Notes: generated from the letters alone by a model not told the origin. A stretch of DNA of 64,000 bases from Candidatus Heimdallarchaeota archaeon (GCA_019057815.1 JAHLWR010000014.1:32001-96000); one strand, 5' to 3'. Positions 3,238 through 14,794 are shown, numbered from the stretch's first letter. Numbers and translations are program-made.

Positions 3238-4080
3238 CTATTCATTCAACTTCTCTTCAATTAATTCAAATAACTTTGATCCATGAGCTGCAATGTTTGT
3301 CTCCAAGTCAGCATATTCCGAATCTTTAATGTTCTCATGCATCCAATGCGTAATCTTTGATCTATGAGCTTTATCTTTTTCTGCACCAACTAAAATACAC
3401 TTTGATCTGATAATTTTTAATTCTGCTTCAGTAATTTTTAAAGCTTTAAGTTGAAGACCACATTTCCGAGCGCGTCTAATATCAACATTGTCCAGATATA
3501 GCTTGTATTTGTTAGTTTGACCTTTCTGATCCTTTTGAGTATGAACAACACCCATTAAGAGTTTTGCAAGAGGTTTAACAATAAGAAAATAAACTATTGG
3601 AACATTGACTTTGAGTACGAACCAGTAGAAATTAGATTCAGTTAATGCTACAACTGGACCAACAAGAAAAGACAATTTAGGATTTAAGACTTTTCTACTA
3701 AGAGCTCTTAAAACAACTGCTGCAAGCATACTTGAAGTCACAAGAAAATATTCATCGGTCATAAGATACTCTAAAACTTGAACTATATCGTCCCCTAATC
3801 TTTCAGCTGTAAAAGAAGAATTTTTATTTATTTTAGAGGTGTGTTTCTCTCGTGTTTCTATGTAGATAATGTTATAATCATCTTTCATTTTCATTAATAG
3901 TTCATCCCAAGCTGAAGGAAGGCTAATGAAACCAGGAATTAGAACCATTGTAGCCTTTTTTTCTCCTTTTGGTTCAAAAGTAAGAACTCTTAATGTTTCG
4001 TCTAAATTCTCTCCTACTTGTATTATAAGTTTAGAAGCAATAACCTCGAATTCTGAACTCATAAATAGCATCTCTATCAC
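3238..4080 (-). CDS. Alpha/beta-hydrolase fold protein (paralog 1)
   Basis: LIPGF oxyanion loop, ETREK, VTSSM elbow, GAEKDKAH, C-terminal AAH. Confidence 0.8.
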   Translation of the reverse strand: MIEMLFMSSEFEVIASKLIIQVGENLDETLRVLTFEPKGEKKATMVLIPGFISLPSAWDELLMKMKDDYNIIYIETREKHTSKINKNSSFTAERLGDDIVQVLEYLMTDEYFLVTSSMLAAVVLRALSRKVLNPKLSFLVGPVVALTESNFYWFVLKVNVPIVYFLIVKPLAKLLMGVVHTQKDQKGQTNKYKLYLDNVDIRRARKCGLQLKALKITEAELKIIRSKCILVGAEKDKAHRSKITHWMHENIKDSEYADLETNIAAHGSKLFELIEEKLNE

Positions 4081-11145: not shown

Positions 11146-12768
11146 CTATATTCTTAGAATTTTTCCTTCCAGAACTTCTTGCAGTTTTCCTTTCTCTACA
11201 GTAATCTTACCATTTACGATAACATAATCTATTCCTGTCGAGAATCTATGAGGTTCTTCATATGTAGCTTCATCTTTAACAGTTTCAGGATCGAATATTA
11301 CTATATCCGCCCAGTAGTTTTCTTTTATTAGTCCACGTTCTTCTAAATCCAGTTTCTTCGCTGGGAATCCAGTCATCTTCCAGATTGCTTCTTCTAATGA
11401 CAACCATTTTTCTTCTCTTACAAATTTACCTAGCACTCTTGGGAATGTTCCATAAAATCTAGGATGGGGTTTACCATGACTTAAAGGACCTTCGGGAGAA
11501 ACACCTGAACCATCGGTTGAGACCATACTATATTCACTTGTCATAATCCTTTTGATATCTTCTTCTCCCATACTTTCGATTGTTATCCAAACCGCACCTT
11601 TCTCGTCACTAATTATACTAAAGAGAGTTTCATAATCATCTTTAAGATTTCGTATTTTTGTTATTTCAGCAATGCTTTTTCCTTCAATGTCTAACCATTT
11701 ATCAGTTTTAACCGAAGCAATGAAGATATTCTCAAAACCTTGATGTTTAGCAAAGTTCTCTTGATCTGTTAATCCTTCTTCCATCTCGTTTTTGATTTTC
11801 TCTCTATTCTTTGCATCATCTAATCTTTCAAGTATTGATTCAATTCCACCAACGTGAACCCAAGGAGGGAGAATAGTGATAAGAGAAGTCATACTTCTAT
11901 TGTAGGGGTATTGATCACAAGTTATGTCCAATCCTCTTTGATTTGCTTCATGAATAATCTGTAATGTTTTCTTACTTAATCCCCAATTAGTTATACCTGA
12001 AGCTTTATGGTGAGCAATTTGTCCGCTCTTACAACCTGACGCTTCAACAATACGAATAAACTCTTCTACAGCTTTAACAACTTTTGCACCCTCATCGCGG
12101 ATATGGGAGAAGTATATTCTATTATATTTAGCAACTATCTTAGCGAGTTCAATCACTTCATCTGTCTTAGCATAAACTTGAGGAGAATATATTAAGCCTG
12201 TACTCATACCAAAAGCTCCAGACTGCAAAGCTTCTTCGACATAGGATTGCATTTTAATTAATTCTTCAGAGGTTGGTGGACGATCTTCATAACCTGGTCC
12301 CCCAGCAAGGCGGATAGCGCCAAAACCGACAAAAGGAACAATATTCATAGAACATTTACCTTTCTCCAGTTCTTTCAAATAATCTTCAAAACTCCTCCAA
12401 GACAGATCAATTTCAACACCTGGAGGACTCCACATGTCAACTTCTTTTTTGAAAAGATCAAAGGTTTCGTCACTGATAGGTGCAAGTGAAATACCGCATT
12501 GTCCCACAGCAGCTGTTGTTATACCTTGAGTAATCATGGATTCAAGCTTGTTGCTGATTGGAATATTGCTGTCAGAATGACTGTGAATATCAATAAATCC
12601 TGGAGCAATAATTAACCCTTTTGCATCAATTACTATGGTTGCTTTATCAGAGATTACTTTTTTAATTTTGGTTATTTTTCCTTCTTTAATCGCTAAATCT
12701 GATAAATAGGGAGGATTACCTGTACCATCAACAATTCTTCCATTGTTTATAACAATATCATAAACCAT
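11146..12768 (-). CDS. N-acyl-D-amino-acid deacylase (D-aminoacylase, amidohydrolase family)
   Basis: PGFIDIHSHSD, SHIRDE, HHKASG, DQYPY, PHPRFYGTFPRVL. Confidence 0.9.
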   Translation of the reverse strand: MVYDIVINNGRIVDGTGNPPYLSDLAIKEGKITKIKKVISDKATIVIDAKGLIIAPGFIDIHSHSDSNIPISNKLESMITQGITTAAVGQCGISLAPISDETFDLFKKEVDMWSPPGVEIDLSWRSFEDYLKELEKGKCSMNIVPFVGFGAIRLAGGPGYEDRPPTSEELIKMQSYVEEALQSGAFGMSTGLIYSPQVYAKTDEVIELAKIVAKYNRIYFSHIRDEGAKVVKAVEEFIRIVEASGCKSGQIAHHKASGITNWGLSKKTLQIIHEANQRGLDITCDQYPYNRSMTSLITILPPWVHVGGIESILERLDDAKNREKIKNEMEEGLTDQENFAKHQGFENIFIASVKTDKWLDIEGKSIAEITKIRNLKDDYETLFSIISDEKGAVWITIESMGEEDIKRIMTSEYSMVSTDGSGVSPEGPLSHGKPHPRFYGTFPRVLGKFVREEKWLSLEEAIWKMTGFPAKKLDLEERGLIKENYWADIVIFDPETVKDEATYEEPHRFSTGIDYVIVNGKITVEKGKLQEVLEGKILRI

Positions 12769-12859
12769 TTTACTCGAGTGAATTCACCCAACATCGTTTA
12801 TAACTGTTCCTTCTTCCTTCAGACTAACTAAAATAGAATAACTGGAAATAACAAACATG

Positions 12860-13074
12860 AGTTATTTTCCCCACTTTCCCCAGATTGAAGGGTAGTGGAA
12901 GACAATTTTGAGGACTCTGCCCAACCCAGGAGCGTTTAAGGGAGCATCGCTTAAAGCAGTAGTTTAGGGAGTTTCAAGCTCTGGGATTACACCTCCAACA
13001 CACAGTGTTAGCGGAGGTGAGAGGGTTCATCTCCTCACCGGGACTCATTACTGGAGACAGTGTTATTGAGAACC
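12860..13074 (-). ncRNA. Putative omega-RNA (reRNA) scaffold of the TnpB
   Basis: GC-rich non-coding stretch between the tnpB stop and the right end; hairpins 13044-13070, 12990-13019, 13016-13039, 12925-12985, 12935-12955; position matches TnpB/Fanzor omega-RNAs. Confidence 0.65.
12865..12886 (+). repeat. Right-end inverted repeat TTTTCCCCACTTTCCCCAGATT (two tandem 9-bp motifs)
   Basis: Matches the reverse complement of 14601-14622 at 20/22 positions. Confidence 0.85.
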
Positions 13075-14553
13075 TTAGGCTCTCACTCCAGCTCCGGGGG
13101 TAAGCAGATGACTCTGCTTCGTCTGTAGCCATTGGCTCAAGACAGGGAAGACACGAAAAGAAATGAGTGGAAAAAACTTTCCACTAACTTGGTCTTTAAT
13201 GGAGTTGTATTTTGGTTGCAGAACATATTTTATCAGTCTTTTAGCAATATTCTTCGCCCCATTCAAGTCTGCATTAAGGTTGTACCCACAGGTATGGCAG
13301 ATGAATGTTGGTTGGTTGGGACGGATAGTGTGATAGGATCCACAACGCGAACAATAAGAAGATGTTCCCGATTCACCTATTGCTAGTATCCTGTGCTCCT
13401 CCCATCCTTGTAAAGAGAGCTTGAATTTCAGCAATTCTACCACTCTCCTATAATTCCATTTGTGGACATTTTTACGAGAGTGAGGGTAGAGATTACCCCT
13501 ATAATGACTCTTGCGGATATGAAGGGGGAAGCCTACCACTACATAGAGGTCATATCTCTTGCCAACAGAGAGAATATACTTTACTAACTTGTTGACATAG
13601 GTGTGGTCGGTTAGTTGATGTTCTGTTCTTTGGCGCTTTCTGAGCGATTTAAGTTGGTGGAGAAGACTGTCTCTCTTGTTTACATTCAAACTATGTTTAG
13701 CACTAATTTTCTGCAGTTTAGCGATCTTTCTTTCAGTTTCCTTTAGTAGTTTTTTTCGTGTCTTATCAGACCAGAATCTGATCTCATGACGATTGATAGC
13801 TCCTTTCGGAGTTAACAGTGCACTTACTGCACGCTTGTTGATTCCTAGGTCTATCCCCAGCACAGCTGGAGGACGAGAAGAAGAGTATTTATCTGGAACA
13901 TGAAGCAAGATGAAATGTACCCACCACTCCTTCTTCTTGGGATAGCAGAGCACTTCTAGTGCCTGTAATTTCCCCTGATTTAGGTTATGTTCATGATAAG
14001 GTGAACAAGCTAAAGGTAACCACAATTTCTCGTGTTTGTGAGTGTTGTTCTTCTTTGTATCGAAGGAGTCTCTTATCCCCACCCACCATCGGGCAATGGA
14101 GTTGGAAGGAGAACAAGTAAGAATAAACCTTTTAGCATGTGATAGCTGTGTCCGGGGGATTTTTTTAAGTGTAGGATCTTTAGCAGGCGCTGAGTTATTT
14201 GCTTGTTGACTGTGGTAGATGGCTACAGCGTTCTCTCTACATTCTTGGAACTCATTCTGAGAGCAGCGTGGAAAGCTCTTTTTAAAATCGTGTCTAACTG
14301 TAGGGCGATTGGGTAATTTATTCATCTTGCATGTTGTAAGCGTAAGATGGTCTAGTTTTGCTTTACTCACCTTCTTCTTACCCTTCTTTGTTATTGCTAT
14401 TTGCTCTTCATTGTGGTATATTACTTTGAGGTACTGTTTGATTATTCTCGTGTCTCTCCCCGTAATCTGTTCCAGTCTTTTTCTTTTCCGTGTTGTGATC
14501 ACTTCTGCTTTCACTCTCACTTTTACAGTCGTTCTCACCCCACTTCTCGTCAT
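13075..14553 (-). CDS. tnpB: RNA-guided endonuclease TnpB family, with rearranged (Fanzor-type) RuvC
   Basis: RuvC-I LGIDLG (D235); RuvC-II VVVGFP (G341 in place of E); alternative E394 in IGESGTS; Zn finger CSRC/CHTC; RuvC-III NADLNGAKNI (D429). Confidence 0.9.
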   Translation of the reverse strand: MTRSGVRTTVKVRVKAEVITTRKRKRLEQITGRDTRIIKQYLKVIYHNEEQIAITKKGKKKVSKAKLDHLTLTTCKMNKLPNRPTVRHDFKKSFPRCSQNEFQECRENAVAIYHSQQANNSAPAKDPTLKKIPRTQLSHAKRFILTCSPSNSIARWWVGIRDSFDTKKNNTHKHEKLWLPLACSPYHEHNLNQGKLQALEVLCYPKKKEWWVHFILLHVPDKYSSSRPPAVLGIDLGINKRAVSALLTPKGAINRHEIRFWSDKTRKKLLKETERKIAKLQKISAKHSLNVNKRDSLLHQLKSLRKRQRTEHQLTDHTYVNKLVKYILSVGKRYDLYVVVGFPLHIRKSHYRGNLYPHSRKNVHKWNYRRVVELLKFKLSLQGWEEHRILAIGESGTSSYCSRCGSYHTIRPNQPTFICHTCGYNLNADLNGAKNIAKRLIKYVLQPKYNSIKDQVSGKFFPLISFRVFPVLSQWLQTKQSHLLTPGAGVRA

Positions 14554-14583
14554 TCTAGGATCATTACTTATGTTAGATTTCCC

Positions 14584-14591
14584 TATAAAAA
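14584..14591 (-). promoter_or_regulatory. TATA-like box (TTTTTATA) inside the left end, ~30 nt upstream of the tnpB ATG
   Basis: Sequence and spacing typical of archaeal near-leaderless promoters. Confidence 0.4.
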
Positions 14592-14600
14592 GTTAACTCA

Positions 14601-14622
14601 AATGTGGGGAAAGCGGGGAAAA
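14601..14622 (-). repeat. Left-end inverted repeat of the TnpB element
   Basis: Minus strand reads TTTTCCCCGCTTTCCCCACATT. Confidence 0.85.
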
Positions 14623-14794
14623 TTTACCATGCTTACATTACTATTCAAAAAAAATAAGATGTTTTTAGTTATGCAGAAATAGATGAAAGAGAAGAATAGT
14701 TATCTTCTTTTTTTCAGAAAAAAAGTTAAGCTTATTCCTCCAACTACAATAACTAACCCAGCAATGTAATATAATATGTGTTGGATTTGTTCAA

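Follow-up and report, generated by a model that had tools for sequence, protein, structure and literature searches.

What moves a tnpB gene that has no transposase beside it and lies between symmetric inverted ends? The question is raised by a locus in a 64,000-nucleotide stretch of DNA from Candidatus Heimdallarchaeota archaeon (GCA_019057815.1 JAHLWR010000014.1:32001-96000), referred to here in its full length as the window. The window lies on contig C40 of a 3.74 Mb Heimdallarchaeal (Asgard) genome in 48 contigs (G000), which was compared with a sister genome (G001) and with further relatives. The element spans positions 12856-14631 (1,776 bp) and carries one gene, an intact tnpB encoding 492 amino acids. 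It belongs to a real, mobile, multi-copy family with miniature offspring, and it inserts at CAT, mostly within CATG, with one CAT in the empty site and one at each junction when the site is filled. The anatomy, mobility and target of the element are solid; its mechanism we infer. We give an even chance to a trans-acting enzyme that works on double-stranded ends, at the AT of C-AT-G.

The tnpB orientation is the reverse of that of the window. We call the end at the 5' side of tnpB the left end (LE) and the omegaRNA end the right end (RE), and we refer to the miniature inverted-repeat transposable elements of the family as MITEs. In window order the features are as follows.

12837..12856, minus strand: predicted guide-encoding flank, about 20 nt directly 3' of the terminal CAT in tnpB orientation; conservation among copies ends right after CAT, and the guide role is assigned by analogy with TnpB omegaRNAs
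12856..12859, no strand: RE junction (omegaRNA end); C12856 is host flank, AT at 12857-12858 is shared core and G12859 is element-borne
12860..12886, no strand: RE arm of the terminal inverted repeat, identified by the inverted-repeat match; five bases, two 9-bp TTTTCCCCA-type units and four further matching bases
12857..13145, minus strand: omegaRNA-like conserved structured RNA region, covering the last ~70 nt of tnpB and extending to the RE; identified by alignment, fold and retention in all six MITEs
13075..14553, minus strand: tnpB, 492 amino acids, intact, with putative catalytic D235, relocated E394 and D429 and a CxxC...CxxC zinc finger; identified by profile matches, alignment and predicted structure
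14582..14591, minus strand: TATA-like box ~30 nt upstream of the tnpB start codon, a putative promoter; conserved in all copies and retained in the MITEs
14601..14627, no strand: LE arm of the terminal inverted repeat, identified by the inverted-repeat match; 22 matching positions and five variable bases
14628..14631, no strand: LE junction (tnpB 5' end); C14628 is element-borne, AT at 14629-14630 is shared core and G14631 is host flank (read in tnpB orientation as the C of the flank CAT)

Both junctions of the window copy read CATG (12856-12859 and 14628-14631), and five bases inward of each begins a 22-nt arm. The arm at 12865-12886 matches the reverse complement of 14601-14622 at 20/22 positions, each arm being built of two TTTTCCCCA-type units of 9 bp. 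A repeat search returned the ends as a 34-nt inverted pair with 79% complementarity, the longest inverted repeat of the region. Both arms are equidistant from the central AT, each end reading G, five bases, then the repeats. The gene at 13075..14553 on the minus strand is the sole long open reading frame (ORF) inside the element; a profile search of this ORF found no transposase domain within the element, and the interior is richer in GC (0.39-0.45) than the flanks (0.30-0.37). This architecture, including the CATG, the five-base spacing, the two-unit arms, the solitary tnpB and the GC-richer interior, agrees with the initial annotation of the window.

A search of the genome with the end motif, allowing up to two mismatches, returned 17 occurrences, every one at copies of this element, while the reversed motif used as control gave 0. 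The genome contains five full copies that are 88-89% identical, with the tnpB ORF intact in three and broken in two, and six MITEs of ~355 bp that each join the last ~288 bp to the first ~68 bp of the full element; full and miniature copies together are 88-94% alike. Boundaries are identical in every copy, and the proposal of a non-autonomous multi-copy mobile element with MITE derivatives was borne out. A position-weight scan of the whole genome for the ends found only tnpB copies, miniatures and solo remnants (C27:90263, C19:25574), and another genome holds a 56-bp derivative (L237:1773-1828, G013:C311) made up of only the two inverted arms with CATG on either side. About ten genomes of this Heimdallarchaeal family carry further copies, the close relatives coming from Candidatus Heimdallarchaeota bins. 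Across 400 genomes of the phylum the end motif is limited to two genera of one family, with matches elsewhere at the level of the reversed control, and a metagenome scan with the motif gave nearly all chance matches and one true copy.

Two individual loci of the family are recorded here as observations. A solo LE-like arm with CATG (G000:C19:25544-25574, L094:5545-5575) lies upstream of a gene for a 222-amino-acid N6/N4 DNA methylase, and a HepT/MNT toxin-antitoxin pair adjoins this locus. The sister genome carries a 64%-identical variant copy (L067, G001:C28:6738-8168), in the place of which G000:C33:88767-90245 holds a different 1.5-kb stretch.

Empty sites were read at other copies throughout; the orthologous site of the window copy in the sister genome is interrupted by a contig end. 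Two comparisons are two-sided. Contig C119 of the sister genome has a single CATG where a miniature lies in G000:C1, and G000:C5 reads TATG-TATG where a full copy, with TATG at one junction and C-TTG at the opposite one, lies in G001:C17. A third site, G000:C30, shows a single CATG against a miniature in G001:C157, with one side visible only. The empty-site form predicted for the window copy, flank-CATG-flank, was therefore seen at other copies, and also as flank-TATG-flank. The initial annotation had also considered that loci without tnpB might retain the repeats; they do not, both two-sided empty sites being devoid of either arm. The same result disposes of the idea that a host palindrome was there first and received a tnpB gene in its loop. 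This idea explains why one copy, taken alone, has ends that look symmetric, and nothing else, and the arms accompany every copy to unrelated loci; we reject it and regard its probability as vanishingly small.

The same comparisons define what is shared at the two junctions. In at least four independent copies one junction reads TATG and the opposite one CATG, and the G000:C5 empty site shares only ATG with its filled counterpart. Since at most three bases (CAT) are shared and the outer base of the second CATG is element-borne, the 4-bp CATG target duplication put forward in the initial annotation is excluded. Junction statistics were compiled from independent copies only, with n=27 for the RE junction and n=19 for the LE flank. 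In window orientation the outer base of the RE is C in 20 copies, T in 4, G in 2 and A in 1, and the following ATG is constant except for one copy with ACG. The symmetric CATG flanks noted for the window are thus present at both of its junctions, but the outer base on the RE side (window-left) varies across the 27 copies. Read in tnpB orientation, the right end has the terminal sequence ...CTCAT, after which G comes in 20/27 copies (A in 4, C in 2, T in 1), a frequency of G with a chance probability of 1e-12. The left flank ends in CAT (C 19/19, A 19/19, T 17/19) and is followed by an element-borne G in 19/19. AT is the only core at equal distance from both arms, and the preference for G after CAT indicates a palindromic C-AT-G target. 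One copy elsewhere (L074:2340, G013:C99) is placed exactly on the start codon of the neighbouring gene (CAT on this strand), and its orthologous site in G000:C7 (~3281-3589) reads CCATGG with no element.

The base preceding CAT differs between the two sides of the element. Before the left-flank CAT in tnpB orientation it is G in 6 copies, A in 7, C in 6 and T in 0 (n=19), that is, V-CAT; under genome-wide NCAT frequencies the absence of T from all 19 has a chance probability of 2e-4. The mirror position on the opposite side is T in 12/27 copies, compared with 0/19 (Fisher p 5e-4), and the element's own right end is T-CAT. These counts fit a target-adjacent motif (TAM) of TnpB, V-CAT, that is distinct from the element's own T-CAT end, in which case TnpB would cut the empty site and spare its own junction. 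A V-CAT flank facing a T-CAT end is the arrangement of TAM and transposon-encoded motif (TEM) found in IS200/IS605 elements.

A candidate guide RNA for this nuclease lies at the RE. The last 280 nt up to CAT form the best-conserved part of the element, with a mean column identity of 82% in an alignment of 21 sequences, and conservation among copies stops at CAT. Of the 62 pairs in the consensus fold of the 21 sequences, 14 show compensatory changes; no Rfam family matches the region. From its conservation and fold, this region appears to be an omegaRNA-like structured RNA. The RE arm on the minus strand makes up the 3' strand of the last stem of this RNA, the 3' part of which complements the top strand of the left arm. 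All six MITEs retain the whole RNA region, placed directly behind the LE with its TATA-like box, so the MITEs would be promoter plus guide-RNA cassettes, a known kind of derivative.

The protein is a TnpB-type nuclease, as judged from profile matches, alignment and a structural model. Its profile matches are to Pfam Cas12f1-like_TNB (7.8e-13) and NCBIfam guided_TnpB (1.7e-20; 73.7 bits, under the curated cut-off of 100), and its AlphaFold model (predicted local distance difference test score 82.7) matches structures of Cas12f, TnpB and Fanzor2 with E values from 1e-16 to 1e-9 (best 1.5e-16). A homology search returned 168 relatives, and every listed match with a source name comes from an Asgard lineage. 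A RuvC-fold triad and a zinc finger are present; the putative catalytic residues D235, relocated E394 and D429 are invariant in 36 Asgard homologues. The canonical RuvC-II position is occupied by Gly341 (VVVGFP here) and by Gly in the 36 homologues, all of which share the relocated Glu six residues ahead of the first CxxC. RuvC-I reads D-L-G. This is the relocated-glutamate RuvC-II type; Fanzors are recognised by D-P-G at RuvC-I together with a relocated Glu and a eukaryotic or viral host (PMC10711439).

The element resembles eukaryotic Fanzor transposons in its TnpB-family nuclease with a relocated glutamate, in a candidate guide RNA at one end, in its inverted-repeat ends and in duplicated or flank bases that would form part of the TAM. 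It differs from them in having D-L-G rather than D-P-G at RuvC-I and a prokaryotic host, and in sequence and fold the protein is no closer to Fanzor than to Cas12f or TnpB. The comparison with Fanzor transposons made in the initial annotation is therefore fair as an analogy, but it does not describe a new arrangement: prokaryotic TnpBs have already been described in DDE transposons with inverted repeats, as have solo TnpBs that are mobilised in trans (PMC10691335). Asgard-specific TnpB clades and standalone omegaRNAs have been described as well (PMC10691335, PMC13565253).

For the movement of the element, we propose a non-autonomous transposon of the obligate mobile element-guided activity (OMEGA) type, comprising tnpB, an omegaRNA gene at the RE, an internal promoter in the LE and symmetric terminal inverted repeats. 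An enzyme encoded elsewhere would bind both inverted ends on double-stranded DNA, and strand exchange would take place at the central AT of C-AT-G. After excision, omegaRNA-loaded TnpB would re-cut the empty site with a guide transcribed from the flank beyond the RE, reading V-CAT as its TAM and sparing its own right end, T-CAT; miniatures would borrow TnpB in trans. Action on double-stranded ends is supported by the symmetry of the ends, the LE without a hairpin and the 56-bp derivative that consists of arms only. Our tentative first choice for the enzyme is a conservative serine-type recombinase with IS607-like logic, preferred because scarless excision fits the homing role of TnpB. A DDE transposase that generates a 2-bp AT duplication, suggested by analogy, is nearly as likely and no less tentative. 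IS630 duplicates TA within CTAG.

Both candidate enzymes have known counterparts among TnpB-bearing elements. Like the element, members of the IS607 family (IS607, IS1535, ISC1926, ISXfa1) encode TnpB and, at the right end, a guide RNA (a candidate one in the element), carry short repeated motifs close to their termini, and have one short core in the empty site and one at each junction with no long target duplication; one clade of IS607 TnpBs also has the relocated RuvC-II glutamate (PMC10711439). Unlike them, the element has neither a tnpA nor a cognate one with the same ends, and its core is AT within CAT(G), whereas IS607 inserts at and ends in GG. Its arms are equidistant inverted repeats, while the ends of IS607 are unrelated, with repeats at varied distances (PMC6188088).

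TnpBs carried inside DDE transposons of the IS630, ISL2 and IS1031 groups (Altae-Tran et al. 2023, PMC10691335) resemble the element in their symmetric inverted ends, in a tnpB 3' end less than 250 bp from the transposon end, in solo copies thought to have moved in trans and in a short specific duplication inside a palindromic tetranucleotide. Terminal inverted repeats together with 2-3 bp shared at the two junctions, the combination that marks a DDE transposon, are present in the element. It differs from these transposons in its AT/CAT core and its Asgard host, and no DDE partner with these ends was found.

Several observations weigh against a mobilising enzyme of this kind, the foremost being the failure to find it. 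Profile searches of the genome covered resolvase, Y1, Cas1, DDE_3 and DDE_Tnp_1, with the ends inspected at each match, and no enzyme gene bounded by these ends was found in the genome. Its IS607 TnpA copies belong to elements that are bounded by GG or begin ACCGT and that carry a different 650-amino-acid TnpB. Across the 31 genomes of the family (f1), IS607 TnpA loci likewise include none with these ends; these archaeal IS607 elements have other ends, which begin ACCGT, and the 650-amino-acid TnpB. The geometry of the AT core fits the suggested IS607-like element with a non-GG core; the IS607 TnpAs of genome and family, however, sit in unrelated ends with a different TnpB. DDE_3 has no match in the genome, all four DDE_Tnp_1 elements there have other ends, and the only Y1 element has classical hairpins differing from these ends and uses another target. 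The genome's Cas1 genes are either linked to CRISPR or broken, the broken ones having no connection with these ends. No partner gene was found beside eight relatives at 38-60% identity, all of them solo, with examinable DNA in seven, and viral contigs (IMG/VR, searched by protein and end motif) yielded no partner enzyme. The autonomous partner foreseen in the initial annotation, a serine recombinase or a DDE transposase, thus did not appear with these ends in the genome or its relatives. Subfamilies at 71-73% identity keep the terminal CATGA and have lost the 9-bp repeats, so the repeats may not be the main recognition signal.

The asymmetry of the flanks also speaks against action on double-stranded ends: a Y1 (IS200/IS605) mechanism would produce exactly this pairing of a V-CAT flank with a T-CAT end, and a co-resident TnpB-only family with classical subterminal hairpins also uses CAT. 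The main rival is an IS200/IS605-type element of the IS1341 group, moved through single-stranded DNA by a Y1 HUH TnpA acting in trans, which we consider unlikely. Such an element would insert 3' of V-CAT without a duplication and have T-CAT at its right end, and the inverted ends would serve otherwise, for example as the last omegaRNA stem and a promoter element. The V-CAT/T-CAT pattern would then be the TAM/TEM logic of IS200/IS605, and insertion just after CAT fits all three empty-site comparisons, as does a shared AT/CAT core. The RE has a modest stem ~14 nt from its tip, TnpA genes of the Y1 type are present in the genome, and TnpB-only elements are the rule in the IS200/IS605 family (PMC10691335). 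The hairpin-bearing family, of ~1.35 kb and with ~8 copies in the same genome, lies behind (A/G)CAT at its insertion sites and has TTCAT as its terminal sequence. It is represented by G000:C19:31681-33022 and about seven other copies, among them C38:11662, C4:58713 and C33:119757.

Against the Y1 explanation stand the ends themselves. The LE has no hairpin, its fold of -2.7 kcal/mol comparing with a shuffle mean of -4.3 (z +0.8), and the earlier statement that the ends are not IS200/IS605 hairpins holds, with none beyond shuffled controls at the tnpB-proximal end. On one strand the two ends complement each other instead of being alike, an arrangement that Y1 enzymes do not use. The strong preference for G after CAT (20/27) would have no role, the only Y1 element of the genome has other hairpins and another target, and the 56-bp derivative retains only the two inverted arms. 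The IS1341 group does share with the element a tnpB as sole gene, an omegaRNA (in the element a putative one) that overlaps the tnpB 3' end and the RE, a V-CAT flank motif paired with a similar but distinct terminal T-CAT, and gene-less derivatives that retain the RNA. The element departs from that group in its LE without a hairpin (the RE having a modest stem only), its inverted-repeat ends and its palindromic target preference (CATG).

No collection searched yielded a partner, and the element may use no separate transposase. TnpB and omegaRNA could themselves take part in end recognition and mobility, making the element autonomous, or an Asgard-specific enzyme such as a divergent TnpB-linked Cas1 could act. 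A variant supposes an undescribed Asgard enzyme class that moves a whole superfamily of CAT-targeting inverted-repeat TnpB elements, and we hold these possibilities, taken jointly, to be improbable. In their favour, the left arm's top strand and the 3' part of the RNA are complementary, the eight relatives read from the Asgard clade (168 members listed) all stand alone, and Asgard Cas1-TnpB transposons have been proposed (PMC10691335). A third TnpB-only family of 1,373 bp (G000:C46:37098-38470 and C31:17788-19160), with its own TnpB, has different inverted arms and the same ATGA...TCAT tips, and a further TnpB-only family (G000:C12/C1) has CTCAT at one end only. Against them, no system tested so far needs TnpB for transposition (PMC6188088, PMC13565253). 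The broken tnpB in two of the five full copies and the miniatures without tnpB show that mobility does not require the gene in cis. The Cas1 genes of the genome, CRISPR-linked or broken, are not tied to these ends, and the absence of a partner from incomplete metagenome bins is weak evidence. The published Asgard Cas1-associated clades (Cas1H-Asgard-1 and -2; PMC10691335) belong to the same broad Asgard-restricted TnpB clade, and in thorarchaeal relatives at 39% identity the published motif GTTCACTCA adjoins tnpB. The element differs from them in that no Cas1 lies beside it or its near relatives, its ends are other and the GTTCACTCA motif is absent here.

Some further loci were recorded in the course of the search. 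Two IS607-type loci (G000:C9:67948-68603 and C18:1-656) have an intact TnpA, are interrupted by contig ends and have left ends bounded by GG; another (G000:C27:145973-148591) combines a decayed tnpA with a 652-amino-acid TnpB, and two IS607-type copies are 5'-truncated (C12:123977, C21:21461). Among the 31 genomes of the family, an IS607 TnpA exceeds the curated cut-off in nine of the ten that bear the element, while most of the element-free ones lack such a gene; because these genomes are kin and rich in insertion sequences, we treat this co-occurrence as a lead and not as evidence. A broken solo Cas1 gene and a 382-amino-acid ORF (G000:C36:1237-8724, L095) are enclosed by two 1,562-bp direct repeats, both parts of a P-type ATPase gene, an arrangement that may reflect an insertion or a duplication in that gene. 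In the window, the RNA end of the element lies 88 bp (12769-12856) upstream of an amidohydrolase gene (11146-12768, minus strand) pointing in the same direction, so read-through from the element could enter that gene.

With this element, the few prokaryotic TnpBs known in inverted-repeat transposons gain a well-defined Asgard member. Its inverted-repeat setting is the arrangement typical of eukaryotic Fanzors, here together with the same relocated catalytic glutamate. The compact pair of TnpB and omegaRNA-like RNA and the natural guide-only mini-elements would be suited to functional study, and the flanks yield a TAM prediction for this TnpB, V-CAT being accepted and T-CAT spared. The question of the mobilising enzyme applies likewise to several TnpB-only families of this genome.

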